NCBI GenBank assembly: GCA_049585815.1
Contig: JBAVAR010000011.1
Coordinates: 4,919-68,918 of the forward strand
Length of the DNA stretch: 64,000 nt
DNA from: Solirubrobacterales bacterium
Lineage (GTDB): Bacteria > Actinomycetota > Thermoleophilia > Solirubrobacterales > 70-9
Direction of reading: 5' to 3'
Shown here: positions 28,138-43,653 of the stretch, one piece after another
Layout: each line of letters begins with the position of its first letter
Numbering within the stretch: the stretch's first letter is position 1
Notes under the pieces: generated by a model
Told to the model about the DNA's origin: nothing
The model's database searches: none
What the model saw: the letters and a program-made list of their open reading frames with translations, nothing else
Program-made: the position numbers and the translations under genes

Positions 28138-28160
28138 AATCCCCCTGAATTTAGGGGATT
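28138..28160. promoter_or_regulatory. Inverted repeat AATCCCC-N9-GGGGATT upstream of the double-TetR gene (candidate operator)
   Basis: Read directly: aatcccc (28138-28144), ctgaattta, ggggatt (28154-28160). It lies 68-90 nt upstream of ATG 28070 on the regulator's side of the 848-bp divergent region. Confidence 0.3.
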
Positions 28161-28730
28161 TCCGGCTTTCCGACCAGGCACAACCAGCTCTTTGGCCGGC
28201 CTTGGTGCCAGTCGCTCGTAGGCAGGCCTGTCCTACCTCTCCAGCTCTGCCTCTTCCCCCTCCCAGCCACCTGGCGATAAGCCCGCCACGTCTTCGTTTG
28301 CGCCGCTACGCCGTCCCGCTCCTGGTTCCCGGGGTGGTGCGGAGTTCCGAGGTGCTCCTTCGATAGGGGCGAATTGGGGTCGGCGTGATGGTCCATGCTG
28401 CCCTGGCCTCGTTTTCGCTGTAGGCGTCGAGGGTTGATGGATCGCCCCGACGTGGGCGAGCTCCCGTGCCGCAAAGTGCTCGCTCGCCCATGCGGTCACT
28501 GGAATCGATCCACTACTCACCCAAGCCCAAGCGGGTTCAAGTGAGGTTCCTCGCCTGAACTGTCCGCTGAGGTGGTCCTCAACCTGCCGTTCGACGGACC
28601 TGGTTTCGCCCGAATTCAGATACGCAGATTTTTTTGTTCGCTCGCTAGCCTAAACTCTACTTTTCCCTGCGTCAAAGCCATTTTTCCCGAGCCTCCCACC
28701 CTGTGCGATTGATGAATCTCGCTTTCCCCC

Positions 28731-28759
28731 TTGCAACTGTAGGCATCTTGGTGTAATAG
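28731..28759 (+). promoter_or_regulatory. Candidate sigma-70-type promoter of the A1-B1-A2-B2 operon
   Basis: TTGCAA (28731-36), 17 nt, TAATAG (28754-59) with TG immediately 5' of the -10 element. It sits in an unusually AT-rich stretch about 160 nt upstream of GTG 28918. The prediction rests on the motif only. Confidence 0.35.
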
Positions 28760-28833
28760 TTTGAGCTGACGCTGCGCAGTGCGCCCGAGCAATCGGAAAG
28801 CGCATTGACGCCACGCCAAAGGGTTTCGGGAAG

Positions 28834-28913
28834 TCCACAGGGATCGGACCTCAGCGGGGTCCGAAAAAGGGAAATCCACAGGGATCGGACCCAGCCGGGT
28901 CCAAAAAAGGAGA
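28834..28913 (+). repeat. Two tandem 41-bp direct repeats, each containing a GGACC...GGTCC hairpin/palindrome followed by an A-run, directly upstream of the A1 SD
   Basis: R1 (28834-28872) is tccacagggatcggacctcagcggggtccgaaaaaggga. R2 (28875-28913) is tccacagggatcggacccagccgggtccaaaaaaggaga. The first 17 nt are identical. Stems are CGGACC/GGTCCG (28845-50/28858-63) and GGACCC/GGGTCC (28887-92/28897-902). R2 ends in the AGGAG SD of GTG 28918. Confidence 0.75.
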
Positions 28914-28917
28914 GGGA

Positions 28918-31900
28918 GTGGCAGCATCTATTTCGAGGATTGGGGGGGCTCGGGCGATCGCCTGTGCCGCGATTGCCGTCGGCCTACTCCTCCTCCTCGT
29001 CCTCCCGGTTTCGCAGAGCTTCGCCAGCGAACACACTGAAGTGACCGGCGAATACGGCAAGGAAGGCCCGAAATCCAGCGGGCTCGGCGTTGGCTGTCAC
29101 CTCGGCTACAACGGTTCCACTGGGCACCTCTATCTCGCGGCTGACGGCAAAATCTACGGTCTCGCCGTCAGTTCTGGCTCGGCAACCCCGCTCGGCGGCA
29201 AATTCCCCGTCACCACTGGAATCAGCACCGGATGCGGCGAACCCGACATCGAAGTCGAAAGCTCGGGCGCCGGCAACATCTACGGCGTCCAGTCCGGAGG
29301 GAACGGCGAAATCTATGGCTGGGACTCGAGCGGCAACGCCCTCGGGACGCCATGGCCGGTATCCGTCCCAGGTGGCGGGGAACTGTGTGGCGTCGACGTC
29401 GGCCCGGGCGGTGGGCCATGGGCCGGCGATTACAGCCAGCAGAAAATATTCAAATATTCCGCAGCGGGGACTGCGACTGGGACAATCAACGTTGGCTTCA
29501 GTCTCTGCAAGCTCGCCGTAGATCACGTCACCGGCGACGTTTACGCCTCCTCTTACGGGGGCGGCCAACTAGTCGAGTTCACCGCCTCCAGCGGCTACAC
29601 CGAAAAAATCACTTTCCCGGCGCCTGGCGGCGAACCCGGTCTTGCCGTCAATGACGCCGAACACAAGCTCTATGTCGGAAACGGCAGCTCCACCGTCAAG
29701 GTCTATAACACCGAAACCACGAGCCTGATCGAAACGATCACCCTCCCCGAAGAAGGAGGACATGGGCTCGCAGTCGATGAAGGGACCGACACCCTCTTCG
29801 TCGCCATCGGCTCGGGCTCCAGCGGCTACATCGTGGAATATCTCGGGCTCACAACCCCGAAGGCGACGACGGGAGAACCGACCGGGAACAGCGAAGTGAG
29901 CGGAACCGCGAACCCCAATGGCGTCGGCCCGATCACCGAATGCTACTTCGAATATGGACTCACCACGGCCTACGGAAGCAAACAGAACTGCGCCGAGTCG
30001 ACACCGATCTCAAGCGAAGAGACAGTTCACGCGAACCTGCCGGGCCTGATCGGCGAGGAAACCTACCACTACCGTTTGGTCCTGACGAACGGCGAACCGC
30101 ACGTCATTGGCAGGGGGGCCGATAAGACAATCACCCCGCACAACGTCAAAGGCCTGTTCACGGAAGCGGCGAGCGAAGTGACACAGGACTCAGCCATCCT
30201 TAACGCCCGTTTCGAAGGCACCAATGAAGATACCCACTACTACTTCGAATATGGGCAGACCACAAATTACGGTCACAAGACGGCGATCCCGCCGGGCGAA
30301 GACGTGGGCGCGACGACCGGGGCCACGCACATTTCCAGCACGATCGCCGGCCTGGAACCCGGTATTACCTACCACTTTCGCGTCGTCGCCGAAAATTCAA
30401 TCGGCCTATCGAAGGCAAACGACAATTCCTTCAGGACGAACCAATTGCCGGCGATCATCTCCGATACAACCAGTCACATCACTGAAACGTCCGCGGAGGT
30501 AGACGCGACGATTAATCCGCATGAATTCGAAACTGACTACTTTGTTGAATACGGACCGACCCCCCAATACGGCTCGATTGCCCCGATTCCTCACGGCATC
30601 CTCGCGCCAGGCAACAGCGCCGAAAGCGTCCCAATCCAGCTTACCGGGCTCCAGGGAATCCGCTATCACTTTCGGGTTGTTGCGGCCAATCGCTGGGGCC
30701 GTGTGGAAACTGAAGACCAGAGCTTCAACTTCTATCCACCATCCTGTCCAAACTCGATCGTGCGTCAGCAGAACGAAAGCGAGTACCTGCCGGACTGCCG
30801 CTCCTATGAGCTGGTCTCACCCGAAGAAACCGGTGCGGTTGAGCTGACCAATTCCGAATTCACCGCGGATCCCTACGCAACCAATCCTCCCCGGTTCGCT
30901 TTTGTGGGATTCCTGGGCGGGATCAACGGCACCGAACCAACCAACTCCGGTGACGATACCTACGTCGCCACGCGAACCAGCATCGGTTGGAAAACCCACC
31001 TGGTGGGAGTACGCGGCTTCGAAGGACAGGCTTCGGGCCCACTGTTTGCGAGCCCGGACTTCAGCAAGTTTTTGAATTTCGATGAACCGCCTTTCTTCGA
31101 AGGACAACCCCAGCCACCGCACAACATTCCGTACACCTGGGACAGCGAAGGCAATCCGCTAGGCCGCTTGCCGGCTAATTTCGAAAGCGTTCCGAAGGCA
31201 GAAGAAAACCTCGGCGCATACCAGCCGTCCCCGGATCTGAATCATCTCGCCTTTTCCTCTAGCAACATTGCCTTCACTTCCGAAGGACTGACGACTCCGC
31301 CCGGGTCTGCCTACGACTACAACGTGGCTACGGAAACCACGACATTGATTTCCAAAAAGGCAAACGGTGAAAACATCGAACAGGAGCCCGGAAACACCAG
31401 TGCCACCAAAGAGGAGATCCTCTTTCCAGGTGACAATCCCGAATATGGCGGATACGGCTATGGCTCGATGGCGCCTCCTTACCATCCGGGGGTGTCGACT
31501 GACGGTTCCCACATTCTGATGTCGACCGCGAGCGCGCCCTACAACCACTTCAACGAACCGCCGAAACCCACGCGACTCTACATGCGGGTAAACGACCTCG
31601 TAACGTACGAAGTCTCACAGGGGCACGACGTCAACTACGTTGGGATGACTGCCGACGGGACTAAAGTCTTCTTCACCTCCCCCGAACGGCTGACCTCCGA
31701 AGACACGGATAACAGCGTCGACCTCTACATGTGGAGCGAAGCAGGAAACAAGCTTACCCTGGTCTCCAAGGGCGGTGAAGGAGCCGAAGGCAGTGGAAAC
31801 AGCGACGAATGCAACGCAACGTGGGTGAGCGGATGCGGGATTCGGCCGCTTGAGACTCAGCATTACACGGATAACTCGATCGCTGGCGAAAGTGGCGAAA

Positions 31901-32784
31901 TCTACTTCTACTCGCCTGAACAGCTCGACAAAACAAAAGGCGTGCCGAACCAGCAGAACCTCTATGTCTACCGTGACGGCAGCCCCCAGTTCGTTGCGAC
32001 GCTCAGCCCGATCGGGGGCGAAGAAGGACCGGTGACGCGCGTCCAGGTGTCCCCCGACGGAAGTCATGCGGCGTTCGTCACCTCCAGTCAGGTGACCAGC
32101 TACAACAACGCCGGCATGGCGGAGATGTACTCATACGACCCCTCCCAGGGGTTGGTCGTCTGCGTCTCCTGCCGGCCGGACGGCTTGCCGCCGACGGTGA
32201 ACGTCGAAGCCAGCAAGATGGGCCTGTTCATGTCGAACGACGGCAGGACCTTCTTCTCGACCGAAGATCCGCTGGTGCCGACGGACACGAACGAAGCGCA
32301 GGACGTCTACGAGTACGTGGAAGGCAGGCCGCAGTTGATTACCCCGGGCACCGGTACGAGCCAGTCACATCTGGGCGGGTACGGCGGCAGCGGCAACAAG
32401 GGGTCCGAAGGGCTCGCTGGAGTCAGCGCCGACGGCGTCAATGTCTACTTCTCCACCCGGGACATCCTCGTTCCGCAAAACAAAAACGGGCCATTCCTCG
32501 CCTTCTATGACGCTCGCACCGACGGCGGTTTCCTCTATGAACCACCGCTGGCTCCGTGCGAAGCTGCCGACGAGTGCCACGGTGCCGGCAATTCCACCCC
32601 GGTGGAACCCACGGTGTCCAGCGAAGGCAGTCTCGGCTCTCGCGGCAACGCGCCAAACCCGAAGCGGCAGAGGGTCAAGCGAAGTCATCACCGGCGCCAC
32701 CACCGAAAGAGCCAGCGCCGCCATGGCAGGCGCCACCATCGCTCCAAGTTCCAGCGGCAGCAAGGAAGCTACCGCCATGCATAG
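28918..32784 (+). CDS. Giant secreted protein A1 (1288 aa), function unknown. It comprises a signal peptide, NHL/YVTN-like propeller blades, three Fn3-like YG.T..YG units, a PD40/TolB-like propeller region, a C-terminal DECHG Cys motif and a His/Arg-rich tail.
   Basis: GTG start with AGGAG SD. Signal peptide MAASISRIGGARAIACAAIAVGLLLLLVLPVSQSFA. Blades such as GNIYGVQSGGNGEIYGWDSSGN, GDVYASSYGGGQLVEF and HKLYVGNGSSTVKVYN. Fn3-like units run from aa ~316-606 (CYFEYGLTTAYG..YHYRLV; YYFEYGQTTNYG..YHFRVVAEN; YFVEYGPTPQYG..YHFRVVAAN). PD40-like repeats include DGTKVFFTSPERLTSEDTDNSVDLYMW and NDGRTFFSTEDPLVPTDTNEAQDVYEY. The end is FYDARTDGGFLYEPPLAPCEAADECHGAG...KRQRVKRSHHRRHHRKSQRRHGRRHHRSKFQRQQGSYRHA. 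Confidence 0.85.
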   Translation: MAASISRIGGARAIACAAIAVGLLLLLVLPVSQSFASEHTEVTGEYGKEGPKSSGLGVGCHLGYNGSTGHLYLAADGKIYGLAVSSGSATPLGGKFPVTTGISTGCGEPDIEVESSGAGNIYGVQSGGNGEIYGWDSSGNALGTPWPVSVPGGGELCGVDVGPGGGPWAGDYSQQKIFKYSAAGTATGTINVGFSLCKLAVDHVTGDVYASSYGGGQLVEFTASSGYTEKITFPAPGGEPGLAVNDAEHKLYVGNGSSTVKVYNTETTSLIETITLPEEGGHGLAVDEGTDTLFVAIGSGSSGYIVEYLGLTTPKATTGEPTGNSEVSGTANPNGVGPITECYFEYGLTTAYGSKQNCAESTPISSEETVHANLPGLIGEETYHYRLVLTNGEPHVIGRGADKTITPHNVKGLFTEAASEVTQDSAILNARFEGTNEDTHYYFEYGQTTNYGHKTAIPPGEDVGATTGATHISSTIAGLEPGITYHFRVVAENSIGLSKANDNSFRTNQLPAIISDTTSHITETSAEVDATINPHEFETDYFVEYGPTPQYGSIAPIPHGILAPGNSAESVPIQLTGLQGIRYHFRVVAANRWGRVETEDQSFNFYPPSCPNSIVRQQNESEYLPDCRSYELVSPEETGAVELTNSEFTADPYATNPPRFAFVGFLGGINGTEPTNSGDDTYVATRTSIGWKTHLVGVRGFEGQASGPLFASPDFSKFLNFDEPPFFEGQPQPPHNIPYTWDSEGNPLGRLPANFESVPKAEENLGAYQPSPDLNHLAFSSSNIAFTSEGLTTPPGSAYDYNVATETTTLISKKANGENIEQEPGNTSATKEEILFPGDNPEYGGYGYGSMAPPYHPGVSTDGSHILMSTASAPYNHFNEPPKPTRLYMRVNDLVTYEVSQGHDVNYVGMTADGTKVFFTSPERLTSEDTDNSVDLYMWSEAGNKLTLVSKGGEGAEGSGNSDECNATWVSGCGIRPLETQHYTDNSIAGESGEIYFYSPEQLDKTKGVPNQQNLYVYRDGSPQFVATLSPIGGEEGPVTRVQVSPDGSHAAFVTSSQVTSYNNAGMAEMYSYDPSQGLVVCVSCRPDGLPPTVNVEASKMGLFMSNDGRTFFSTEDPLVPTDTNEAQDVYEYVEGRPQLITPGTGTSQSHLGGYGGSGNKGSEGLAGVSADGVNVYFSTRDILVPQNKNGPFLAFYDARTDGGFLYEPPLAPCEAADECHGAGNSTPVEPTVSSEGSLGSRGNAPNPKRQRVKRSHHRRHHRKSQRRHGRRHHRSKFQRQQGSYRHA

Positions 32785-35581
32785 CAGTCGACACACATTC
32801 TCACTGCGATGGATTGGCGTGAAGCGCCGCCGCTCCCTTGGCCTTTCCGTCACGACGCTGATTGCGGCGGTCGCCACGGTGGCTGCACTGGCGCCCGGAC
32901 GTGCTGGGGCAGAATCTCCGATATACCAATTTGAAGTCACTCCGTCCACCACTCAGGCAGGCGGGCACCCGAATCTCCACACGCTGGTTTGGGTCGGGAA
33001 TCGCTATACGCAGCAGATTCCTCCGCCCAGCTGCGACTGCCAGGACCCGAAGGACGTGACTGTTGAAATGCCGACCGGCGTCATCGGGCTTCCGCAGGCG
33101 ATGCCGAAATGCAGCGCCGCCGACTTCGCCGACCAGGAATGCCCGCCGGAGACGCAGATCGGGGCCGCCGTCATCAGCATCAACGCGGAACCGCCCGGCA
33201 CCTCGGGTTTTGGCAGGATCGCAATTTTCAACCTCGAACCGCACCCGGGCGAAGCGGGGCTTTTCGGCTTCACTTTCCCGCTCCTGCGTTTTCCCGTATA
33301 CCAGTCGATCAACTCGCGGACCGAGAGTGACTACGGCCTGGATGTAGGCACGGTCAACATCACTCATCTTCTGCCGCTCGCCTTTGTCGAAGAGAACATC
33401 TGGGGCGTGCCGGCATCGCCCGAACACGATGCGGAACGGATGCCGACTGGATGGGAATCGTTCTTCGACGGGATAAATCCTCCGACGCCGTCCACCGAAT
33501 TGGAAGTCCCATTCATCAACAACCCGACCACGTGCGGTCAGCAAAACCTCACCGCGAATGTGACCGTCCTTTCTTACGACAAAGGAGTGACTCACGCCAG
33601 CCATCCCTATCCTCCGACCACAGGCTGCGATCAGCTCAGCTTCAATCCGAGCCTCTACGCACAGCCCACGACGACGGCGACCGACTCGGCCTCCGGCCTT
33701 GACGTCGATCTCCAGGTGCCCCAGCAGCTCAGCCCGGAAGTAGCCTCACCCTCGGAGATCCGTGCGACGACGGTCGCGCTGCCCTCCGGATTCTCCATCA
33801 ATCCCAACGCCGCCGATGGAAAGACGTCGTGCTCGAACGCCGAAGCGGAGATCGGCACCCGACTCGAAGCGCAATGCCCGGAAGACTCGAAGGTGGGCAC
33901 CGTGAGCGTGGACAGCTCGGCGCTGCCGGGACCGATTCCCGGCTACATCTATCTCGGTACGCCGTTGCCCGGCGATCGCTACCGGCTGATTCTCACCGCC
34001 AATGGCTACAACGTCCACGTCAAGCTGCCGGGTTCGGTTCTCGCCAACGAACAGAATGGCCAGGTCACCGTTTCCTTCCAGGACCTTCCCCAGACTCCGT
34101 TCTCCGCGTTCAACATGCACTTCTTCGGTTCCGAACGGGGACTGCTCGCGACCCCCGAAAAGTGCGGCACCTATGGCGTCAGCAGCACCTTCACGCCGTG
34201 GGACAACCTTCTCTCCGAACAGACCTCCACGCAGTACTTCACCCTGAGCAGCGGTCCTGGCGACAGTAGCTGTCCGGCCTCCAGCCGCCCGTTCAACCCG
34301 ACCTTCAGCGCAGGCGTGGCGGACAGGACCGGCGGAGCGCATTCGCCATTCTCGGTCGTTCTCAAGAGGCCCGACGGCGATCAGAACCTGAGCGGACTGG
34401 ACGTGACGACCCCGCCGGGGCTCGCCGCGACCCTCGCGGGCGTCTCCTATTGCCCCGATGCGACGCTCGCCGCGGCTGCCACATCGGTGTCTGGCCTATC
34501 CGAGCTTGCCAGCCCGAGCTGTCCCGCGAGCTCCCGGATCGGGACCGCCTCAACCGCCTCCGGTGCGGGCGATCATCCTCTCTATCTACCTGGTCAGGTC
34601 TACCTGGCGGGACCTTACAAGGGCGCCCCGCTCAGCCTCGCGGTGATCACCCCCGCCGTTTCCGGCCCCTATGACCTGGGCAACGTCGTCGTGCGCGCCG
34701 CGCTCCAGGTCAACCCGGTGAACGCCCAAATCACCGCGGTAACTGACCCCCTGCCCCAGATCATCGACGGGATCCCGCTGCGCCTGCGTCAGATTCAGGT
34801 CGATCTCAACCGGCCCCAATTTGCGCTCAACCCAACCAACTGCTCTCAGTTTGCAGTCCAAGCGAAGATTTTCGGCAATCAGGGGGCTGAGGCGGACCCC
34901 GCGGCGCCCTTCCAGGTCGCCAACTGCGCCGAAATGCCTTTTGGCGCGAAGCTGCAGCTGATGCTCCACGGGGGCACGAAGCGGGCTCAGACCCCGGCCT
35001 TGACGGCCGTACTCACCGCTCGTCCCGGAGAAGCGAACATCGCCAAGACCGTGGTCACGATGCCAAACTCGATCTTCCTCGACAACGCTCACGTCCGCGG
35101 GCCGTGTACCAAAGTACAGTTCGCGGCAAACAGCTGTCCGCCCGGCTCGATACTCGGCACCGCAAAGGCCGAATCACCGCTGCTGGCCCAGCCGCTTGAA
35201 GGAAATGTATATCTGGCCACCGGCTATGGCCACAAGCTGCCGGACATCCTCGCCGCGCTGAAAGGGCAGGTCAACATAAACCTCGATGGTCGCGTGGATT
35301 CGGTTCACCAGAGCCTGCGCACCAGTTTCGAAGCGGTGCCGGACGTGCCGGTGACAAGGTTCGTACTCAATCTGCGCGGAGGAAGTAGGGGCTTGCTGGA
35401 AAATAGTGCCAACCTCTGCGCCAAGGTGCAGCGAGCGACCGTCAATATGACGGGTCAGAACAACCTCCGCACCAACACGAAGCCAAAGCTGCAGCTTTCG
35501 TGTGGCGGACACGGCAACAGCAGCAACCTCAAGCGTAAGCAGCAAAGGCGCCCGGCTCCGACGGGGAGAGGGACAAGGTGA
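32777..35581 (+). CDS. Secreted four-module protein B1 (934 aa), function unknown. Paralogue of B2.
   Basis: I place the start at ATG 32777 (SD AAGGAAG), overlapping the A1 stop as ATGCATAG. The N-terminus is MHSSRHTFSLRWIGVKRRRSLGLSVTTLIAAVATVAALAPGRAGA (signal). The mature N-terminus is ...FEVTPSTTQAGGHPNLHT. A Cys-pair module recurs about four times (LP.G...NP...C....CP..S.(I/V)GT...P(L/I).G.(V/I)YL...(L/V)P..P(F/V)..F..........L...C). It ends in a basic C-terminus ...LKRKQQRRPAPTGRGTR. Confidence 0.85.
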   Translation: MHSSRHTFSLRWIGVKRRRSLGLSVTTLIAAVATVAALAPGRAGAESPIYQFEVTPSTTQAGGHPNLHTLVWVGNRYTQQIPPPSCDCQDPKDVTVEMPTGVIGLPQAMPKCSAADFADQECPPETQIGAAVISINAEPPGTSGFGRIAIFNLEPHPGEAGLFGFTFPLLRFPVYQSINSRTESDYGLDVGTVNITHLLPLAFVEENIWGVPASPEHDAERMPTGWESFFDGINPPTPSTELEVPFINNPTTCGQQNLTANVTVLSYDKGVTHASHPYPPTTGCDQLSFNPSLYAQPTTTATDSASGLDVDLQVPQQLSPEVASPSEIRATTVALPSGFSINPNAADGKTSCSNAEAEIGTRLEAQCPEDSKVGTVSVDSSALPGPIPGYIYLGTPLPGDRYRLILTANGYNVHVKLPGSVLANEQNGQVTVSFQDLPQTPFSAFNMHFFGSERGLLATPEKCGTYGVSSTFTPWDNLLSEQTSTQYFTLSSGPGDSSCPASSRPFNPTFSAGVADRTGGAHSPFSVVLKRPDGDQNLSGLDVTTPPGLAATLAGVSYCPDATLAAAATSVSGLSELASPSCPASSRIGTASTASGAGDHPLYLPGQVYLAGPYKGAPLSLAVITPAVSGPYDLGNVVVRAALQVNPVNAQITAVTDPLPQIIDGIPLRLRQIQVDLNRPQFALNPTNCSQFAVQAKIFGNQGAEADPAAPFQVANCAEMPFGAKLQLMLHGGTKRAQTPALTAVLTARPGEANIAKTVVTMPNSIFLDNAHVRGPCTKVQFAANSCPPGSILGTAKAESPLLAQPLEGNVYLATGYGHKLPDILAALKGQVNINLDGRVDSVHQSLRTSFEAVPDVPVTRFVLNLRGGSRGLLENSANLCAKVQRATVNMTGQNNLRTNTKPKLQLSCGGHGNSSNLKRKQQRRPAPTGRGTR

Positions 35582-38500
35582 CCTGCACGGGATCGACAAT
35601 CGGGCGACGCATGCGGGTTGCCATTCTGGGAGCCTGCCTGGCAGCGGGAGTGTCGCTGCTTGCTGCCGGGCCCGCGGAGGCGGTGCAGTGGACCCCCCAC
35701 TCCTATGAAAAGAGCATTAGCGGATGGTCGGGCGGTGGTAGGAGCGTTGCGGTTGATCAGCAGAGTGGGGACTTCTACATAGCCACAATCGAACCCGGGC
35801 TCCGTATCTACAAATTCAATGCTCAGGGTGAACCGAGCGCATTCAGCGCCCTCGGAGGGGCGAGCTATATCCAGGTTACGAGCGAAGAAGTCTGCAGCTG
35901 CAGTGAAGCTCGCGTCGTAGTTGATAATTCCGGAGGGTCAGATCAGGGGCGCATCTACGTAATCAGCAGTTGGCGTGACAAAACCTGGGCCTTCGAACCC
36001 AGCGGAACTCCGGTCGGCGGAGCCTTCCCAATAGACAGCTCTGAAGGGGAGCTGGCGATCAGCCCCACCACCGGCAATTTCTTTGTGACCGGAACGCCCC
36101 TGCTGGAACGCGCATATGAATACAATCACGCTGGGGAAAAGACAGGCAACTACGTCGATCTCAGTACGTGGGGAAGCACCGACATGGTGCTAAGTCCGAC
36201 TGGAAACTGGTACACCTACCATGGGTATCAGGAACCGCGTGGAATTCTTAAACAGAACGCGTCGGGCGAACTAATTGAACACCTGTATTCCCAATTTTCA
36301 GAAGCCTTCAACATCAATTCGAAATCCGGCAACGTGCTCTCCGCCCGAGAAGAAGAAATTGCTGAATTTGATCCCAACGGTAACGAATTACCGCGCTTCG
36401 AATACGAATCCGAAGGTGAAGCGAAAGCAGTCGCGGTAAACGCGGTCAACAATTACATCTATGTGCTAAAGAATTACGGCGGCAACGAGCTGAGCATCTA
36501 TGCACCGGGAGCTCCAGTAACGGCCCCGTCGGCCGAAAACGAATCGCCCACGAATATCAAAGGAACGTCTATGACGTTGCATGCCTCGGTTGAACCCGAA
36601 GGCGTGACGACGACCGAATGTGCCTTCGAATTCACAACCACAGAAGAATACGGCTATATAGATTACGAAGAACACAGAGTGCCCTGCGAACAGGGGAAAG
36701 CAATATCCGGCAGTTCTTCCACACCTGTCAGCGCGATGATTACTGGCTTGACCCAAGGAGCCACCTACCACACACGCCTTGATGTCGGCAACGCAAACGG
36801 CGAATTCCATACCAGGGACGCCAAGGTGATCCCCTCCGAACCCCCGGTCATCGAAAGCCCCTACATCGACAGCGTCCATACCGACAGCGTCGAATTCCAC
36901 GCTGAAATCACCCCGGAAGGGGCTCCGACCACTTTCCACGTGCTCTACGGAACGGCCAACTGCGCCGCCGAACCCGAAGCCTGTTCCCAGACCCCCGAGA
37001 CCTCCTCGATCGGAAACGGTCTACTGCCGATCGCGGTCAGCGCCCACGTGACCGGGCTGAAGCCGGGAACCACATACCACTACATAATCGTCGCGACCAA
37101 CCAGAGCGCCACCGTTGAATCGACAAACGGGACCTTCACCACGTTCCCCTATACACCGGTGCTCGAAGACAGCTGTCCCAATGCTCACGTTCGTCAACAG
37201 ACCAGCGCCGCGCTGCTGCCGGACTGCCGTGCCTATGAGCTGGTCTCGGCCGGCAGGGCCGGTGGATACGATGTCGAGTCGTTCCTCAACGCCGAACAGG
37301 AACCGTTCGGTGGCTATCCCTACGCGGAGAATCCGCCACGCGCCCTCTACGGCGTCCACGACGGAGCAATTCCCGGTAGCGGACACCCGACCAATCACGG
37401 TCTCGACCCCTACGTCGCGACCCGCGGTGAAGAAGGTTGGAGCACATCCTACGTCGGCATTCCGGCCAATCTTCCGTATTCGACTGAATCGTTCGCTTCG
37501 CCGCTGGCTGGCGCAGACTCCTCGTTGGACACGTTCGCCTTCGGCGGTCCGGGACTGTGCTCGCCATGCTTCGCGGACGGCACCACCGGCGTGCCGGTGA
37601 CACTTCCCAACGGCAGCTTGGTGCAGGGCATGGCCGGATCAGAGCAGCCTGGCGCCGGCGCGAGCGCCAGCATGCTCGTGAAGAAGCCGCTCTCCTCTGA
37701 CGGCAGGCACCTGATCTTCGGCTCGGACTCCGAATTCGAGGCCGGTGCCGGAAGCCCCGCGATCTACGATCGCAACCTCACCACCGACGTCACTCATGCG
37801 GTCTCGAAGCTGCCCGGAGGCGGAAGCATTCCCTGTCTGATGGACTGCAGCTCCGACGGTCTCGCGGAGCTCGATGTCTCCAGCGACGGCTCGCGCATTG
37901 TCATCGGGCAGTTGATCTCGAAAGATGCCGCGGGCAATCGCTACTGGCACCTGTACATGAATATCGGCGACTCTGGCCAGACGATCGACCTTACCCCTGG
38001 GGCGACGGAAGGTGCTCTCTACGACGGGATGACCGCCGACGGGTCCATGGTGTACTTCACTACGAAGAACCAGCTGACCGGCCAGGACACTGACAGCAGT
38101 GCCGACATCTACCGGGCCGACGTCACCACCTCCGGCGCGAACCTTTCGCTCGTCTCGATCGGCAGCGGCGGCAGCGGCAACTCCGAATCCTGCGAACCGC
38201 TCGGCGACTCCCAGAATGAACATTGGAACAGCGTCCAATCCACACCCAACTGCGACGCTGTCGCGGTCGGCGGCGGCGGCGGAGTCGCGGCGGCCGACGG
38301 AAGCATCTATTTCCTCAGTCCCGAACTGCTGGACGGAGGCGTCGAACCCACGGACGGCGTCGCCAACCAGCCCAACCTCTACATCTCCCGCCCCGGATCG
38401 CCCCCCAGCTTCGTCGCCACTCTTGAGTCGAGTGCCACCGGTCCGACGCCGCCGCTGGAGGAACATCGGTTCGCGAAGTACTTTGGCCCGAGCAGCAACA

Positions 38501-40113
38501 CCCAGTTCGTCGCAGTTGACAACTCCGGCGGGCCCTCCGACGGCGACGTCTACGTCGTCAACCGCAATGAACAGGTGATTCGCAAGTACGACTCCGAAGG
38601 CAACCTGGTGACCAGCTGGCAGAACAATGGCGTTTTCGATCCCAGTTTGGCGCACGAAATCGCCGGCATTGCTGTGGGAGGCCCGGAAAATGCTCTCTAC
38701 GTCGCGATCGACGAAGAAGTCAACTCCGGGGAAAACCGGATATTCGAGTACGACGAAAACGGCAACCAGCTCGCGTCAACTTCAAATGTTGAAAAGGCTC
38801 CGGAACCGATCGGAATCGCGGTCGACTCGCAAGGGAATGTCTTCTACGAGGGCTACGGCGTGGTCATGCGCTGGCAGAAGGGCAAAGGATCGACTGAAAT
38901 CGCTGGCGGCACTTACAACTCGCCGCCGCCGACGGGACTCGCTGTCAATCCGAGCACTGGCACTCTCTACGTGAGCTACGGCGGCCAAGAAATCTCGCGC
39001 TACGCGTTCAGCTCAGAAGGAAAGGTGATCGAACCGAGTGGCGAATGTGCGTCCCGCTGCGAACCAACGTCGACCTTTGGCGCCGGCGAAGTCTCGAACG
39101 CGAGCGGCATGTTCGTCGACCCCACCCGCGGCGAACTGTACGTCGACGAGGGCAACAAGATCATCCGCTTCCTCGGAACTGGCACCCGTGCCCCCGGGCC
39201 GGATGTTGGGGTCAAGAAGATCAACAACTCATCCTCGGTTGCGCTCAGCTCCTCCACCGATCTCTATGCAACTAACGCCGGCTCCGAAGGTGCCGACGTG
39301 GCGGCGTTCGGCCCGATCCGCCTGGCCCCCGATCCCCGCACCGACAATCCGCTCGTGCTCGACTCCGTGAACGAAGCAGGATCCCGGCGCACCGGTGATT
39401 TCCAGATCACACCGAATGGAGACAAGGCGGTCTTCCTCTCGACGATCGCCTACACCGGTCACGTGACCGGTCGGCGGGAGGAGGTGTTTCTCTCCGAATC
39501 GACGGGCGGGACGCTCGATTGCGTCTCCTGCAATCCGACGAATGCCCAGGCGCTCGGCGGGGCCTCGCTCGCCCGTGACGGGCTCAGCCTGACCGATGAA
39601 GGGAGGGTGTTTTTCAACTCGACCGATGTCCTCTCCCCCCGTGACTTGGATAACCGCGAAGACGTCTATGAGTGGGAGAACGGCAAGACCAGCCTGATTT
39701 CCACCGGCCTCAGTCCCTTCAACTCCACGCTGTTGACGGCGAGCGCTAACGGCAAGGATGCATTCTTCTTCACACGGGACACTCTGGTTCCCCAGGATCA
39801 GAACGGCAGCCTCGTAAAGCTCTACGACGCTCGCGAAGGTGGCGGCTTTCCCTATACGCCGCCGCCGGTGAGTTGCAAAGCGTCCGACGAGTGCCACGGT
39901 CCCGGTACGCAGGCAGCTCCGGCACCGGCCGTCAACTCGATCACCGGCACCGGTGGAAATCACGTGCAATCGACCCACGCGCTGAAGTGCCGACACGGGC
40001 AGGTTAAGCGGCACGGCCGCTGCGTCAGGCAGCACAGGCGCGGCCACCTCCGCCATCACCGGCGCGCCAAGAGCAAGCGAGATGGCGGGCAAAGCACGGG
40101 GGGGAGGCGATGA
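35578..40113 (+). CDS. Giant secreted protein A2 (1511 aa), function unknown. Paralogue of A1 with an extra internal NHL-like propeller block.
   Basis: GTG 35578 (SD GGGGAGAGGGA, GTGA overlap with the B1 stop). The alternative ATG 35611 gives MRVAILGACLAAGVSLLAAGPAEA. Blocks shared with A1: SCPNAHVRQQTSAALLPDCRAYELVS, NPPR..YVATRGEEGWS, LDCVSCNPTNAQ, DEGRVFFNSTDVLSPRDLDNREDVYEW, LYDAREGGGFPYTPPPVSCKASDECHGPG. The tail is LKCRHGQVKRHGRCVRQHRRGHLRHHRRAKSKRDGGQSTGGRR. Confidence 0.85.
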   Translation: MTCTGSTIGRRMRVAILGACLAAGVSLLAAGPAEAVQWTPHSYEKSISGWSGGGRSVAVDQQSGDFYIATIEPGLRIYKFNAQGEPSAFSALGGASYIQVTSEEVCSCSEARVVVDNSGGSDQGRIYVISSWRDKTWAFEPSGTPVGGAFPIDSSEGELAISPTTGNFFVTGTPLLERAYEYNHAGEKTGNYVDLSTWGSTDMVLSPTGNWYTYHGYQEPRGILKQNASGELIEHLYSQFSEAFNINSKSGNVLSAREEEIAEFDPNGNELPRFEYESEGEAKAVAVNAVNNYIYVLKNYGGNELSIYAPGAPVTAPSAENESPTNIKGTSMTLHASVEPEGVTTTECAFEFTTTEEYGYIDYEEHRVPCEQGKAISGSSSTPVSAMITGLTQGATYHTRLDVGNANGEFHTRDAKVIPSEPPVIESPYIDSVHTDSVEFHAEITPEGAPTTFHVLYGTANCAAEPEACSQTPETSSIGNGLLPIAVSAHVTGLKPGTTYHYIIVATNQSATVESTNGTFTTFPYTPVLEDSCPNAHVRQQTSAALLPDCRAYELVSAGRAGGYDVESFLNAEQEPFGGYPYAENPPRALYGVHDGAIPGSGHPTNHGLDPYVATRGEEGWSTSYVGIPANLPYSTESFASPLAGADSSLDTFAFGGPGLCSPCFADGTTGVPVTLPNGSLVQGMAGSEQPGAGASASMLVKKPLSSDGRHLIFGSDSEFEAGAGSPAIYDRNLTTDVTHAVSKLPGGGSIPCLMDCSSDGLAELDVSSDGSRIVIGQLISKDAAGNRYWHLYMNIGDSGQTIDLTPGATEGALYDGMTADGSMVYFTTKNQLTGQDTDSSADIYRADVTTSGANLSLVSIGSGGSGNSESCEPLGDSQNEHWNSVQSTPNCDAVAVGGGGGVAAADGSIYFLSPELLDGGVEPTDGVANQPNLYISRPGSPPSFVATLESSATGPTPPLEEHRFAKYFGPSSNTQFVAVDNSGGPSDGDVYVVNRNEQVIRKYDSEGNLVTSWQNNGVFDPSLAHEIAGIAVGGPENALYVAIDEEVNSGENRIFEYDENGNQLASTSNVEKAPEPIGIAVDSQGNVFYEGYGVVMRWQKGKGSTEIAGGTYNSPPPTGLAVNPSTGTLYVSYGGQEISRYAFSSEGKVIEPSGECASRCEPTSTFGAGEVSNASGMFVDPTRGELYVDEGNKIIRFLGTGTRAPGPDVGVKKINNSSSVALSSSTDLYATNAGSEGADVAAFGPIRLAPDPRTDNPLVLDSVNEAGSRRTGDFQITPNGDKAVFLSTIAYTGHVTGRREEVFLSESTGGTLDCVSCNPTNAQALGGASLARDGLSLTDEGRVFFNSTDVLSPRDLDNREDVYEWENGKTSLISTGLSPFNSTLLTASANGKDAFFFTRDTLVPQDQNGSLVKLYDAREGGGFPYTPPPVSCKASDECHGPGTQAAPAPAVNSITGTGGNHVQSTHALKCRHGQVKRHGRCVRQHRRGHLRHHRRAKSKRDGGQSTGGRR

Positions 40114-42926
40114 TGGCAGCTGGATCGACCAGGGAGCTCCGCCGCGCCGGGGCGACCGCGAGGTCACTACATCCGCGAGCGCCCCGTATCCTGCGCGTGC
40201 TCAGCCTCACGATTGGTCTCTCGCTGCTGCTGGTCGGCTTCACTGTCGGCACCGCACAGGCGACCGAGCGGATCGAATCATTCTCGACCACCACCTCGAC
40301 GACGCAGGCGGGGGGGCACCCGGATCTACACACCTCGTTTTCGCTCAACAGTCCGGGACTCCCTGAGGCCGCGGAAAACGTGACCGTCGAAACTCCGCAG
40401 GGCGTGTTCGGCAACCCGAACGCGATTTCGCAGTGCGCCTCGGTGGTCTTCGCTGACGAGGAATGCGCCCCCGCGTCCCAGGCGGGTGTGATCACGGTGT
40501 ACGCCCGCTATGAAGGCGATCCGAATTTTCTCCTGGGTACTGCGCCGATCTATGATCTTGTGCCGTCTGAAGGCGAAACGGCGCTGTTCGGCTTCATCGT
40601 ACCGATTCTGAACATCCCGATCCAGATCCCGGTCGCGGTGCGAACGGACAGCGACTACGGATTGCGCTTCAAGGTATCCGAGATCACCCAGGTCACGCCG
40701 CTGTCGGCGGCGAATCTCACCTTCTGGGGCTTTCCAGCGGAAGCAAGTCACGAATCCGAACGCTTTCCGCGGGGAGCCAGCGGGCTACCGGCCGGGTGTG
40801 CCGGGTTGGCGAACACGAGCTGCCTCGCCAACCCCACTCCGGTCTACATCGCGATCCATCCGCTCACCGATAATCCGACGACCTGCAATGGGCAGTCACT
40901 GATGACCACACTCAAAGTGCAGACCTATCAGGATCCCAATCACGAATCGGAAGCGCACGACGAATATCCCGCGACGACCGGGTGCGAAAAAGAGCTGTTC
41001 AAGCCGCTCCTGTACTCGCAGCCCACGAGCACCACCACCGATTCTCCCTCTGGCCTCGACATCACGCTTTCCGATACCCAGTTCCTCGGCTTCGCCGTCT
41101 CCCCTTCGGAGATCCGCGAATCAACGGTCGTTCTTCCGGCCGGCCTGACGATTAATCCGGACGCAGCCGACGGTCAGACGGCATGCACTGATGCCGAGGC
41201 GAACTTCGAAAGCGAAGCCGCCGCATCCTGCCCTGACAGCTCGAAGATCGGCACTGTCGCGCTGCACACTCCCGCCCTCGCCGGGCCGCTCGAGGGCTCG
41301 GTCTACATGGGCGAACCGAAGCCGAACGACCAGTACCGCCTGTTCATGGTGGTCGACGGCTTCGGTCTCCACGCCAAGCTTGTCGGCTCGGTCAGGCCTG
41401 ATCCTGTCACCGGGCAGGTGTCTGTCCACTTCGAAGATCTGCCCCAGGTTCCCTTCAACGAATTTGACCTTCATCTGTTCTCCTCCGACCGGGGCCTGAT
41501 GGCGACGCCGACTGTCTGCACGATCTACAACACGGAAGCGACCTTCGTGCCGTGGAACAATCTTTTGCCGACGGCCAGTTCGAGTCAGGTCTTCGGCCTC
41601 ACCGCCGGTCCCAACGGTGGGCCCTGTCCGGGAATAATCCGTCCGTTCCATCCGACCTTGGCCGCGGGAACCACTCACTCACTTGCCGGCGGCTTCTCCA
41701 GCTTCTCGCTGAAGTTGAACCGCGAAGACGGCGACCAGTACCTCGGCAAGTTGAACTTCACCATGCCTCCAGGCCTCACCGCCAACCTGCACGGCGTCAC
41801 CTACTGCCCCGAATCCGACATCACAGCTGCCGCCAACACCCTCGGCAAGGTCGAGCAGGCCGATCCCAGCTGCCCGGCCTCCAGCGAAATTGGCACTTCC
41901 AACGTCGCCGCTGGACCCGGATCGCACCCCTTCCACGCGGTGGGCAAGATCTACCTCTCCGGGCCTTTCCAGGGCGCTCCCCTCAGTCTGGTCGCGATCA
42001 CTCCCGCTCTCGCCGGTCCCTATGACTACGGCACGGTGGTTGTTCGTGTGGCCCTCCACATCGATCAGCGGGATGCGCACGTGGTTGCCGACTCCGAAAC
42101 GGTTCCCTCGATCATCGGCGGCATCCCGCTGCGGATGCGCGAAATCAGGGTCAACATCGAACGTCCAAACTTTATGATCAATCCGACAAACTGTTCGCCG
42201 TTCTCGGTCGCCTCACAGGGCATCGGCGACCAGGGAACGGTCGCCAACTTCAGCTCCTACTTCCACGTCAACGACTGCTCGACCCTCCCCTTCAACCCGA
42301 AGATGACGGTCACCCAGCTCGGTGGCCATAGGTTCACCGCCCGCGGCAAGGACCCTGCCCTGCAGTTTGACCTCAACACCACCGAAGGCGACGCCAACCT
42401 CAAATCTGTCTCGGTGACGCTGCCAAAGGCCTTTGAGATCGATCAGCGCCACCTCGGCAACCTCTGCTCCCGCTCCCAGCTTGAAAAAGAACACTGCGCC
42501 GGGCGCCAGCCGATCGGCTTCGTCAAAGACGAAACGCCGCTGCTCGAAAAGCCGCTCGAAGGCCCCGCCTACGCGGTCTCCGGTTTCTCCAATGGCAAAA
42601 ACGTCCTGCCCCACATCGCCTTCATCCTCGGCGGCCAGGTCACCGTCGTGCCCCAGGCCGAATCGATGACGCTTGGAGGCGGACGCCTCAAAACTACGGT
42701 CCCGGTGATCCCCGACGTGCCGATCGGCCACTTTCGCTTCACCCTGCTCAGTGGCGCTCAGGGCTACGTCTCAAACACCGAAAGCCTCTGCGCCGCCGAT
42801 CCGGTGATCGCCGTGCAGCTGAACGGCCAAAACGGCAAGTCGATCACCCAGCAGGTGAAGACGAGGACCGCCTGCAGGGCAAAGAAGCAACACAAGCGCA
42901 AGGCAAGGCGCCACCGCCGGCGCTGA
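40110..42926 (+). CDS. Secreted four-module protein B2 (938 aa), function unknown. Paralogue of B1.
   Basis: ATGA overlap with the A2 stop (40110-40113), SD GGGAGG. It has a hydrophobic N-terminal segment RILRVLSLTIGLSLLLVGFTVGTAQA. The mature N-terminus is ..FSTTTSTTQAGGHPDLHT. It is collinear with B1 throughout, for example VVLPAGLTINPDAADGQTACTDAEANFESEAAASCPDSSKIGTVALHTPALAGPLEGSVYMG. The tail is KTRTACRAKKQHKRKARRHRRR. Confidence 0.85.
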   Translation: MMAAGSTRELRRAGATARSLHPRAPRILRVLSLTIGLSLLLVGFTVGTAQATERIESFSTTTSTTQAGGHPDLHTSFSLNSPGLPEAAENVTVETPQGVFGNPNAISQCASVVFADEECAPASQAGVITVYARYEGDPNFLLGTAPIYDLVPSEGETALFGFIVPILNIPIQIPVAVRTDSDYGLRFKVSEITQVTPLSAANLTFWGFPAEASHESERFPRGASGLPAGCAGLANTSCLANPTPVYIAIHPLTDNPTTCNGQSLMTTLKVQTYQDPNHESEAHDEYPATTGCEKELFKPLLYSQPTSTTTDSPSGLDITLSDTQFLGFAVSPSEIRESTVVLPAGLTINPDAADGQTACTDAEANFESEAAASCPDSSKIGTVALHTPALAGPLEGSVYMGEPKPNDQYRLFMVVDGFGLHAKLVGSVRPDPVTGQVSVHFEDLPQVPFNEFDLHLFSSDRGLMATPTVCTIYNTEATFVPWNNLLPTASSSQVFGLTAGPNGGPCPGIIRPFHPTLAAGTTHSLAGGFSSFSLKLNREDGDQYLGKLNFTMPPGLTANLHGVTYCPESDITAAANTLGKVEQADPSCPASSEIGTSNVAAGPGSHPFHAVGKIYLSGPFQGAPLSLVAITPALAGPYDYGTVVVRVALHIDQRDAHVVADSETVPSIIGGIPLRMREIRVNIERPNFMINPTNCSPFSVASQGIGDQGTVANFSSYFHVNDCSTLPFNPKMTVTQLGGHRFTARGKDPALQFDLNTTEGDANLKSVSVTLPKAFEIDQRHLGNLCSRSQLEKEHCAGRQPIGFVKDETPLLEKPLEGPAYAVSGFSNGKNVLPHIAFILGGQVTVVPQAESMTLGGGRLKTTVPVIPDVPIGHFRFTLLSGAQGYVSNTESLCAADPVIAVQLNGQNGKSITQQVKTRTACRAKKQHKRKARRHRRR

Positions 42927-43023: not shown

Positions 43024-43653
43024 ATGAAGGCAAAGCTGAAGGGCAAGCTGACCTACGCCAACGTGGTCTCCACGCTGTGCCTGTTCGTGCTCTTGGGGGG
43101 AAGCGCCTACGCGGCCCTGAAGATCCCCCGCAACTCGGTCGGCACCCGCCAGCTGCAGGCAAAGTCGGTGACCAACGGCAAGCTCGCAAACGGCGCCGTC
43201 AACGGCGCCAAAATCGCCGAAGGATCGATCACCGGCCAAAACATCAACCTCTCTGCCCTTGGCACCGTGCCCAATGCCGCCAACGCAGTCTCCGCCCAAA
43301 ACGCCAACACCGTCGATGAACACTCGGCCTCCTGCCCCCAGGGAGCGACTCTGATCAGGGGCCTTTGCTTTGACGCCCAGCCCAACCCAGCGGTCTCAAC
43401 GGTCAAGGAAGCAGCCGACGATTGCGCCGCCAAGGGCGGCTACCTGCCCTCCCCGCTTGAGCTCTACTCGGTACGCGGCGTGCTCAACCTGGGCACAGGC
43501 GTCGGCTCTGATCATCAATACACCGATGAGTTCTACGGCAATACCAACGGCACCAACTACCGCACCGTCGTCGTCGACGGGACCGGGGCGATCAGTGAGT
43601 CTGAAATCAACGCCCCCTCCAAATACACCTGCGTTTATCCGCTGGTGCGGTAG
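43024..43653 (+). CDS. N-terminally anchored/secreted protein with short V/I-x-(T/N)-x-K/Q-(L/I) tail-fibre-like repeats and a Cys-containing C-terminal globular domain (possibly C-type-lectin/DUF1566-like)
   Basis: SD AAGGAG. The N-terminus is MKAKLKGKLTYANVVSTLCLFVLLGGSAYAA. The repeats read LKIPRNSVGTRQLQAKSVTNGKLANGAVNGAKIAEGSITGQNINLSALG. The C-terminal domain reads ...CPQGATLIRGLCFDA...VKEAADDCAAKGGYLPSPLELYSV...KYTCVYPLVR. The fold assignment is tentative. Confidence 0.7.
   Translation: MKAKLKGKLTYANVVSTLCLFVLLGGSAYAALKIPRNSVGTRQLQAKSVTNGKLANGAVNGAKIAEGSITGQNINLSALGTVPNAANAVSAQNANTVDEHSASCPQGATLIRGLCFDAQPNPAVSTVKEAADDCAAKGGYLPSPLELYSVRGVLNLGTGVGSDHQYTDEFYGNTNGTNYRTVVVDGTGAISESEINAPSKYTCVYPLVR

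Follow-up and report, generated by a model that had tools for sequence, protein, structure and literature searches.

A tandem A-B-A-B gene cassette for large, apparently exported proteins is conserved and amplified among Solirubrobacterales

Four overlapping genes for large proteins

We analyzed a stretch of 64,000 nucleotides (nt), hereafter the window, from a metagenome-assembled genome (MAG) of a Solirubrobacterales bacterium (GenBank assembly GCA_049585815.1, contig JBAVAR010000011.1, positions 4,919 to 68,918 of the forward strand). A first-pass annotation of this DNA had described four consecutive, translationally coupled plus-strand genes, A1-B1-A2-B2, as a duplicated gene pair encoding two kinds of giant secreted protein of no recognizable function. 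Exactly these open reading frames (ORFs) were recovered. In the ORF listing, A1 occupies window positions 28918-32784 (GTG start, 1288 amino acids, aa), A2 occupies 35578-40113 (GTG start, 1511 aa) and B2 occupies 40110-42926 (ATG start, 938 aa), whereas B1 (32777-35581, ATG start, 934 aa) lies within an ORF whose longest possible form begins at 32441. All four are on the plus strand, and each stop codon overlaps the next start: A1 and B1 share ATGCATAG at 32777-32784, B1 and A2 share GTGA at 35578-35581, and A2 and B2 share ATGA at 40110-40113. The further claim that each start has its own Shine-Dalgarno (SD) sequence also held, in that a purine-rich, SD-like sequence precedes every gene: AAGGAG at 28907-28912 for A1, AAGGAAG at 32762-32768 for B1, GGGGAGAGGGA at 35563-35573 for A2 and GGGAGG at 40102-40107 for B2. 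The spacing of the last of these better fits a second ATG at 40113, which is where the identical NCBI protein begins (P0001, 937 aa, 100% identity; a hypothetical protein in a Solirubrobacterales MAG with locus tags of the WB507 series); coupling to the A2 stop is retained with either start. No internal plus-strand promoter-like or terminator-like site above chance was found within the four-gene block.

We consider the four ORFs to be real genes rather than chance ORFs, because protein homologues of the window genes with 60-75% identity occur in more than 80 loci and because the codon-position GC content is native to this chromosome (GC3 of 0.72-0.78, above GC1, which is above GC2, as in neighboring genes). 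The effective number of codons (41-45) likewise matches that of neighboring housekeeping genes.

The NCBI record of B1 (P0121) gives a product of 837 aa that starts ~97 codons downstream of the start supported by the protein family, a choice that drops the B1 signal peptide and the first conserved strand. The protein search gave no match of 100% identity to A1, and A1 may therefore be unannotated or flagged as a pseudogene in the source record.

Conservation and amplification of the cassette

A set of 83 related loci (80 non-redundant) was assembled, all from MAGs of uncultured Solirubrobacterales or Actinomycetes, mostly from soil; it comprises the best 80 of at least 570 matches. In 71 of the 80 loci, the genes follow the order A-B-A-B on a single strand, with the matched B gene as the last of the four. 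When co-occurrence of A and B outside the window was examined, as the first-pass annotation had proposed, 157 of 159 A cores were followed by a B gene and 97 of 103 B genes were preceded by an A gene, clearly contrary to the lack of co-occurrence that had been named as a refuting outcome. Moreover, the type of orthologue depends on position: the first gene is A1-type in 72 of 75 cases, the second B1-type in 71 of 76, the third A2-type in 73 of 73 and the fourth B2-type in 73 of 73. In the closest cassettes (L004-L006), the products share 68-73%, 73-75%, 63-65% and 70-74% identity with A1, B1, A2 and B2, respectively, and B1 orthologues at position 2 of related cassettes are 72-75% identical to the window protein. 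Independent gene calls for three loci showed the same overlapping or very short junctions.

Within the window, B1 and B2 proved to be collinear paralogues as suggested (42% identity over 915 aligned columns), and paralogy of A1 and A2 is likewise borne out by their alignable C-terminal two-thirds (30% identity over 678 columns, E 7e-47, and 33% over 229 columns, E 1e-34). Identity between B1 and B2 is ~41% in all cassettes. Because gene order is fixed, orthologues are position-specific and B1 and B2 have diverged to this steady degree, we conclude from these comparisons that the A-B pair was duplicated long ago, that both pairs are now non-redundant, and that the whole cassette was amplified later. 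The pair does appear to have been duplicated as a unit with all four genes still intact and coupled, as had been thought, but not in a one-off local tandem event.

The source MAG contains at least six B2-type paralogues, several other genomes contain at least 5-6 cassettes each, and at least five are present on one closed 2.87-Mb chromosome; these copy numbers are lower bounds, since only the best 80 of the matches were kept. At 14 kb per cassette, five copies make up at least 2.4% of that chromosome. The chromosome-level records that carry cassettes are about 2.5-3.1 Mb in size.

B2 is the most conserved gene of the cassette, with 58-88% identity throughout the 73 cassettes compared, and the best homologues of B reach 74-77% identity versus 55-56% for the A core (defined below). 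The most conserved stretch of all is B2 aa 601-650 (41910-42059; mean identity 88% over the 73 cassettes; consensus GAPLSL..ITPA.AGPYD.G.VVVR.AL), which may serve as an interaction surface. Among the 66 genes compared at position 3, the A2 core is 45-64% identical to the window copy, whereas the A2 head (aa 1-500) is only 13-33% identical, and a propeller inserted into the A2 core, present in 60-70% of cassettes, is about 20% identical.

A second line of evidence for a partnership of A with B comes from natural fusions. In four homologues (P0178, P0188, P0228 and P0237), a signal peptide, an NHL-type propeller and Fn3-like units are joined to a B core. The fusion point lies just before the TTQAGGHPD strand, and the head parts are homologous to the heads of A proteins. 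Other variants consist of two Fn3-like units followed by B (P0201) or of an A-like head of ~520 aa followed by B (P0385 and P0393). In their genomic context, the genes for P0178 and P0228 each follow an A gene immediately and overlap it slightly, which indicates that they are real variants rather than read-through artefacts; one fusion-bearing locus (L086) also has a divergent double-TetR gene upstream. Taken together, synteny and domain fusions make an obligatory A:B complex a well-supported prediction.

B proteins consist of four homologous modules

B1 (32777-35581) comprises a signal-like N-terminus, four homologous beta-sandwich modules and a basic tail. In B2, the modules correspond to aa 52-298 (M1; 40263-41003), aa 299-514 (M2; 41004-41651), aa 515-729 (M3; 41652-42296) and aa 730-925 (M4; 42297-42884), and the basic tail to aa 923-938, all on the plus strand. 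The four Cys-pair modules that the first-pass annotation had recognized are thus truly homologous units of ~200 aa (hhalign probability 87-98%). Each opens with a strand of the T..AG.H(P/S) type and carries a Cys...Cys-P-x-x-S-x-(I/V)-G loop, and the 'TTQAGGHPD' N-terminus of the B proteins is the first strand of module 1. A thioester role for the Gln of 'TTQAGG' was considered and rejected, as this residue lies outside the invariant or at least 90%-conserved columns of the B family.

An AlphaFold2 model of B2, built from an alignment of 41 sequences, is confident and all-beta (mean predicted local distance difference test, pLDDT, of 81.4; predicted template-modeling score, pTM, of 0.71). A Foldseek search of this model against the PDB and BFVD returned only generic multi-beta-sandwich matches with TM-scores of ~0.1. 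The nearest folds include the legs or stalks of adhesion proteins, namely integrin alpha legs, MSCRAMMs, an ice-adhesin extender and DUF11 proteins, together with complement and alpha-2-macroglobulin MG arrays and viral DUF11, Ig and Fn3 proteins. Given TM-scores this low, membership of B in the integrin, complement, alpha-2-macroglobulin or MSCRAMM families is rejected.

At the level of sequence, neither B1 nor B2 matched Pfam or NCBIfam, no meaningful Pfam match was obtained when 41 members of the B family or the giant and extended relatives described below were scanned singly, and neither single B proteins nor the B profile matched PDB sequences. The B profile was also searched against 1.84 billion cluster representatives (clusters at 50% identity), which yielded 10,029 clusters at E<=1e-3, of which 4,063 reached E<=1e-30. 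All cluster names that were looked up were unnamed or 'hypothetical', apart from one evidently spurious 'CusF' label. Many of the proteins found in this way carry N-terminal extensions of 150-700 aa, and a set of giant proteins (P0361-P0368; 2,100-7,161 aa) contains 5-18 B-like stretches (profile positions about 280-910). In addition, on an IMG/VR contig (L084, 4850-13596), three B-family genes (products sharing 33-37% identity with B1 and B2) follow one another in tandem, uninterrupted by an A gene, which indicates that the B family is wider than the A-B cassette. By these sequence criteria, B represents a large family, hitherto undescribed, whose building blocks are beta-sandwiches in tandem.

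A proteins combine variable heads with a conserved core

In A1, a signal-like N-terminus (aa 1-36, assigned from sequence) is followed by a variable head made of a YVTN/NHL-like propeller and three Fn3-like units (aa 37-605; 29026-30732), a hinge with a conserved PD40-type propeller core (aa 606-1225; 30733-32592) and a polycationic tail (aa 1240-1288; 32635-32781). A2 has a similar variable head after its own signal-like N-terminus (aa 36-528; 35683-37161); more generally, A heads contain a YVTN/NHL-like propeller with two or three Fn3-like units. A variable NHL-like propeller (aa 951-1265; 38428-39372) is inserted into the conserved core of A2 and divides it into two parts (aa 529-950, 37162-38427; aa 1266-1445, 39373-39912), and a polycationic tail (aa 1460-1511; 39955-40110) forms the C-terminus. 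All of these features lie on the plus strand. The core, of ~650 aa, extends from the hinge SCPN..VRQQ..LPDCRxYELVS to a C-x5-C-H-G site and has the blade motif DG..FF.S...L...D.N...DVY. The motifs quoted in the first-pass annotation (the hinge, CVSC(R/N)P and YDAR..GGF.Y.PP..C.A.DECHG in A, and TTQAGGHP(N/D)LHT in B) could all be located in the proteins.

The AlphaFold2 model of A1 aa 590-1240 (pLDDT 82.4, pTM 0.85) is a single domain of ~36 strands, which suggests a PD40/TolB-type propeller of roughly 9-10 blades. Foldseek gave 510 PDB matches at E<=1e-3, and the best 50 listed were essentially all beta-propeller proteins. Fold neighbors include prolyl oligopeptidase, TolB, S9 carboxypeptidase, tricorn, the 9-bladed eIF3b and the 10-bladed Vps10 domain of sortilin, with a Foldseek probability of 1.0 and TM-scores of 0.2-0.46. 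On the basis of the model, the core belongs to the PD40/WD40-like beta-propeller superfamily. One homologue (P0303) has a precomputed PF07676 match, whereas the A proteins of the window fall below the Pfam PD40 threshold.

Searches of Pfam and NCBIfam with A1 and A2 gave sub-threshold Fn3, Pur_ac_phosph_N and NHL matches and nothing above cut-off. Scores for Fn3 (PF00041) were just under the gathering threshold of 25 bits (24.8 for A1 and 23.4 for A2), those for Pur_ac_phosph_N were 27.6 and 27.7 bits for A1 and A2 (cut-off 30), and A2 scored 16.7 bits with the NHL repeat (PF01436; threshold 20). The ScyF NHL equivalog of NCBIfam was matched at 29 bits (cut-off 350). Many homologues have precomputed PF00041 or PF16656 matches, and relatives show faint or precomputed NHL matches. 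A PDB sequence search with A1 returned only Fn3-like titin matches. No catalytic domain or motif was found in A1 or A2 with Pfam, NCBIfam, motif scans or the Foldseek search of the A core.

The C-x5-C-H-G site is invariant (CEAADECHG at A1 aa 1214-1221, 32557-32580; CKASDECHG at A2 aa 1433-1440, 39874-39897). It marks the end of the A core, directly before the linker and basic tail, where it might cap the domain through a disulfide, bind a metal or mark a point of processing. Its pattern is not the canonical CXXCH of haem sites, a motif absent from all four proteins.

Elsewhere in the window, a minus-strand gene (13618-15648) encodes a 676-aa exported right-handed beta-helix protein with one Fn3-like unit of the 'FEYG.T..YG' type found in A, which is 43-48% identical to the Fn3-like units of A1.

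Features shared by the four proteins

As noted in the first-pass annotation, all four proteins begin with a signal-peptide-like sequence, consisting of a basic n-region and a hydrophobic segment, and by this feature all four look exported. The mature proteins have even numbers of cysteines (14 in A1, 18 in B1, 22 in A2 and 18 in B2). Their bodies are acidic, with net charges of -87 (A1), -22 (B1), -97 (A2) and -35 (B2), and each ends in a polycationic Arg/Lys/His tail with a charge of +18.5, +7, +15 and +11, respectively. The last 90 aa of the four proteins contain no hydrophobic run of 8 or more residues and no transmembrane segment. Across 360 homologues, the composition of the tail is conserved but its sequence is not; among the last 30 aa, A proteins have a median of 13 Lys and Arg residues, B2-type proteins one of 10 and B1-type proteins one of 9. 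Scans of the four proteins for thioester (TQXA, CGEQ), HEXXH, CXXCH, LPXTG and PEP-CTERM motifs found none of these.

A further plus-strand gene of the window (6184-8106) encodes a 640-aa exported protein with four repeats of ~125 aa, no Pfam match and a long C-terminal tail rich in Lys, Arg and Cys. This observation suggests that basic C-terminal tails may be general for exported proteins of the lineage.

Regulator, leader and downstream genes

Upstream of the cassette, on the minus strand, lies a gene for a 457-aa regulator (26697-28070) with Pfam TetR_N matches in two stretches (E 1.2e-21). TetR-type NCBIfam matches in both halves indicate two complete units in one chain. Homologues of this double-TetR protein are found between cassettes in 18 related loci and are divergent from the A gene in two (L075 and L086), and next to other cassettes lie genes for regulators of the single TetR, MarR or GerE type.

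Between the regulator and A1 is a plus-strand non-coding leader of 847 nt (28071-28917), read directly from the sequence. It contains two tandem hairpins of the form GGATCGGACC-N-GGTCC followed by an A-run (28841-28862 and 28882-28902), directly 5' of the A1 SD sequence. The pattern occurs twice in the window versus zero times expected by chance; it is absent from all 84 related loci searched, which rules out a conserved element. These hairpins may have arisen when the ribosome-binding region was duplicated locally, or may serve as a regulatory element specific to this cassette. No Rfam match was obtained for the whole window.

The first-pass annotation had seen no secretion ATPase, glycosyltransferase or chaperone-usher gene with the operon. 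In agreement with this, no sortase, usher, secretion ATPase or glycosyltransferase gene was consistently linked to the cassette in the window flanks or in the neighborhoods of 76 loci, but two plus-strand genes downstream do recur. Gene C (43024-43653, 209 aa) starts 97 nt after the B2 stop and encodes an N-terminal signal or anchor, short tail-fibre-like repeats and a C-terminal domain with four cysteines that appears lectin-like by eye. Its homologues, at 59-70% identity, lie ~100 nt after B2 in 21-22 of the 76 loci (~28%). Gene D (43936-44754) is predicted to encode an exported protein of 272 aa and recurs near cassettes: homologues are found in 38-39 of the 76 loci, frequently in duplicate, and lie downstream of B2 at a median distance of ~1.5 kb. 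Neither C nor D matched Pfam, NCBIfam or the PDB; C matched PHROG tail-fibre proteins over aa 29-95 (E 6e-9), and comparison of D with B by hhalign (probability <3%) ruled out D as a stand-alone B module. Judging from recurrence of these genes, the cassette unit probably extends to C and D. An antisense shadow ORF (44116-44790) overlaps D.

The rest of the window encodes ordinary chromosomal metabolism, including acyl-CoA dehydrogenases, a thiolase, a carboxyltransferase, short-chain dehydrogenases/reductases (SDRs) and a Na+/H+ exchanger. No plasmid match was found, a search of 2.9 million viral contigs identified only one distant relative, and codon usage is native; a mobile or phage origin of the cassette is therefore ruled out.

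A possible wall-associated surface complex

We tentatively read the locus as a lineage-specific, multi-copy operon for a wall-associated, head-on-stalk surface complex that provides a repertoire of binding specificities, an interpretation that in our judgment falls just short of probable. It builds on what the sequences themselves establish, namely the order and coupling signals of the genes, their paralogy and synteny, the folds of the domains, the pattern of conservation, the make-up of the tails and the natural fusions. Under this reading, for which we infer export, A:B docking, tail retention, ligand binding and regulation, the four genes would be co-transcribed and translationally coupled so as to yield fixed proportions of their products, and the divergent double-TetR repressor would probably control the cassette. 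All four products would be exported and disulfide-bonded. B1 and B2, each with four tandem beta-sandwich modules, would form the conserved stalk or scaffold, and the conserved PD40-type propeller of A1 or A2 would dock on its cognate B. The internal repeats of B, the giant relatives with many B-like stretches, the tandem B genes of L084 and the nearest folds all favor B as a unit from which long structures are built. The parts of A that evolve fast, namely its N-terminal NHL/YVTN-like propeller, its Fn3-like spacers and, in A2, the inserted propeller, would then point outward and could bind ligands such as polymers, particles or other cells. The polycationic tails might attach these very acidic proteins non-covalently to anionic polymers of the envelope, and amplified cassettes with divergent heads and local regulators would constitute the repertoire of specificities.

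Several points weigh against this interpretation. Codon usage does not point to very high expression. With a pTM of 0.71, the B2 model looks more like a compact body of several domains than like an extended stalk, and the distant B relatives that occur without A (L084) show that A is not generally needed by B. Retention on the envelope by the tails is something that we infer by analogy; binding of DNA or metal, or removal of the tails during processing, would be alternatives. Finally, beta-propellers of the NHL/SGL type can be enzymes, so that a catalytic A head is possible.

This last point underlies one of the alternatives, a secreted complex for catalysis or substrate capture in which the NHL/SGL/YVTN-like heads would act as lactonase-, lyase- or phytase-like enzymes or as polymer binders. 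Such complexes would be released or displayed for soil substrates and induced through TetR regulators substrate by substrate, in loose analogy to polysaccharide-utilization loci. Ligand-sensing TetR regulators do adjoin the cassettes, paralogous cassettes are many, and the heads have weak matches to a phytase-like family (NF045638, E 0.018), ScyF NHL (E 5e-7) and PAL (3fvz, E 0.41), with faint SGL and SBBP matches in relatives. These enzyme-type matches are, however, far under the family thresholds. No conserved catalytic motif accompanies them, no transporter, hydrolase or catabolic gene is consistently linked to the cassette in the 76 loci, and the only enzyme relatives of the most conserved parts, B and the A core, are the S9 peptidases, by way of their non-catalytic propellers. 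We regard this alternative as distinctly unlikely. It is highly improbable, in our view, that the cassette encodes an inter-microbial device, whether a shield or decoy against phages or predators or an organ of epibiotic attachment, diversified in an arms race. Rapidly diverging exposed heads on conserved cores, the many copies in genomes of about 2.5-3.1 Mb and the tail-fibre-like repeats of the neighboring C protein would suit such a function; set against these are the lack of any PADLOC or PHROG match for A1, B1 and B2, the single distant relative among the viral contigs and the lack of toxin or immunity genes in the flanks.

A further alternative is a surface layer (S-layer). According to this explanation, the products assemble into an S-layer-like lattice of two or four components, which the basic tails keep attached to the wall, and the cassettes encode layer variants for different conditions or for escape from phages. 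Consistent with it are the large, acidic, all-beta proteins with predicted export and a putative non-covalent basic anchor, an operon of fixed stoichiometry, several divergent copies per genome, and a long 5' leader with hairpins of the kind known for many S-layer genes; the propeller and Ig-like proteins of Methanosarcina and the SlaA/SlaB and TfsA/TfsB pairs offer precedents. However, no SLH, CWB2 or SLAP anchoring domain is present in the four proteins, and their codon bias is no stronger than that of neighboring metabolic genes. At least 5-6 complete cassettes per genome, often with their own TetR-type regulator, exceed the usual systems of S-layer variation, and the heads vary far more than would be expected of a surface that has to form a lattice. 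An S-layer therefore appears unlikely, if less so than a catalytic complex.

If the head-on-stalk interpretation were correct, the cassette might be taken further as a new surface organelle, although we consider this extended form doubtful. It would comprise an A1:B1:A2:B2 heterotetramer with an integrin-like head-on-stalk arrangement, retained on the wall independently of sortase by the polycationic tail that follows the conserved Cys motif. Its programmable repertoire would dominate the cell surface in one of the most abundant uncultured lineages of soil actinobacteria, and B would be a large new family missing from present domain databases. Solirubrobacterales are among the commonest Actinomycetota of soil and are mostly uncultured. 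Although the B family accounts for over 10,000 metagenomic clusters at 50% identity, no model in Pfam or NCBIfam, no solved structure and no literature was found for it; 14 kb per cassette in many copies represents a large genomic investment. Once defined, the function of the cassette should help to explain how these bacteria meet their surroundings, be it by attachment, capture or envelope architecture, and would give a name to thousands of 'hypothetical proteins'. The tails, if they act as proposed, could constitute a new route of non-covalent retention on a Gram-positive surface.

Comparison with known systems

The view that no characterized system has this layout was upheld by searches of Pfam, NCBIfam, PDB sequences, PDB and BFVD folds, PADLOC, PHROGs and the literature, which yielded no counterpart. 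Pfam, NCBIfam, motif scans and inspection of flanking genes similarly agreed with the earlier failure to see a catalytic motif, LPXTG signal, secretion ATPase or usher. PADLOC gave no match, which excludes its defence classes, and PHROGs gave generic propeller and esterase matches for A2 and tail-fibre repeats for C, with none for A1, B1 or B2.

Several classes of surface or propeller protein could be rejected individually. The sortase-anchored LPXTG class is excluded by the lack of LP.TG or LP.[TSA]G in the four proteins, which end only in a basic tail, and S-layer proteins anchored by SLH, CWB2 or SLAP are excluded by the lack of any such Pfam match at E<=0.1 in the four proteins. Thioester proteins of the alpha-2-macroglobulin/complement type are excluded by the absence of C[GA]EQ and of an A2M Pfam match and by fold comparisons (TM-score 0.07-0.10, probability <=0.72). 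Chaperone-usher and sortase pili are excluded by the absence of such genes from the window flanks and from the recurrent neighbors of the 76 loci. The A core has a PD40-type propeller fold in common with TolB, the S9 prolyl oligopeptidases, tricorn and the Vps10 domain of sortilin, but with roughly 9-10 blades in the model instead of 6-7. The A proteins lack the N-terminal domain of TolB and any tol-pal context; the ~36 strands in one domain, the TM-scores of 0.20/0.30 and neighbors that are TetR, SDR and small exported proteins also speak against membership in the TolB family. With no Peptidase_S9 Pfam match, no alpha/beta-hydrolase domain and an end consisting of a linker and basic tail, they are not S9 prolyl oligopeptidases or DPP enzymes either.

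Gram-positive adhesins, including the MSCRAMMs ClfA and ACE, the extenders of giant adhesins and DUF11 proteins, share with B the arrangement of tandem beta-sandwich modules in long exported proteins, and fold matches of B include 6xi3, 5jq6 and 2z1p (probability 0.98-0.99) and a DUF11 protein. B differs in its modules of about 200 aa with a conserved Cys pair each, in the absence of an LPXTG/sortase signal and in the lack of any Cna, SdrD, Big or DUF11 Pfam match among 41 B members. In a different respect, the cassette resembles the SusC/SusD-type loci of Bacteroidota, in which a conserved pair of surface genes is present in many divergent copies, sometimes in tandem and often next to a regulator. 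The resemblance in amplification pattern and local regulators is one of analogy only: the proteins are unrelated, the envelope is of another type, and the cassette has no linked catabolic enzymes or transporters.

Surface-layer proteins of archaea and two-protein S-layers offer a closer parallel. Surface-layer-related proteins of Methanosarcina have YVTN beta-propellers with PKD domains in an Ig-like architecture, and S-layers are built from two proteins in Sulfolobus (SlaA/SlaB) and Tannerella (TfsA/TfsB). Like the cassette products, these are large, acidic, exported all-beta proteins with propellers and Ig-like domains, and by analogy the cassette would likewise encode, side by side, two different subunits that assemble on the cell surface. 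There is no sequence or family-level match between them, however, and the cassette is distinguished by its putative polycationic tail anchor, its four genes and its many copies per genome.

The integrin alpha chain, finally, also places a propeller head on several Ig-like beta-sandwich domains. Integrin alpha chains are the top PDB fold matches of B (E 3e-7, probability 0.99), and their head-on-leg layout in a single chain is mirrored by the natural head-B fusions. The TM-scores are only 0.12-0.14, the cassette has no FG-GAP propeller, transmembrane segment or beta-subunit, and its head and stalk are mostly separate polypeptides, so that the likeness is architectural only. By analogy, then, the cassette would work most like head-on-leg adhesion receptors such as integrin alpha and like the propeller-plus-Ig proteins of surface layers, while being a member of neither group. 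Its folds (propellers, Fn3-like units and beta-sandwiches) are ordinary for surface proteins; what is new is the family and its organization.

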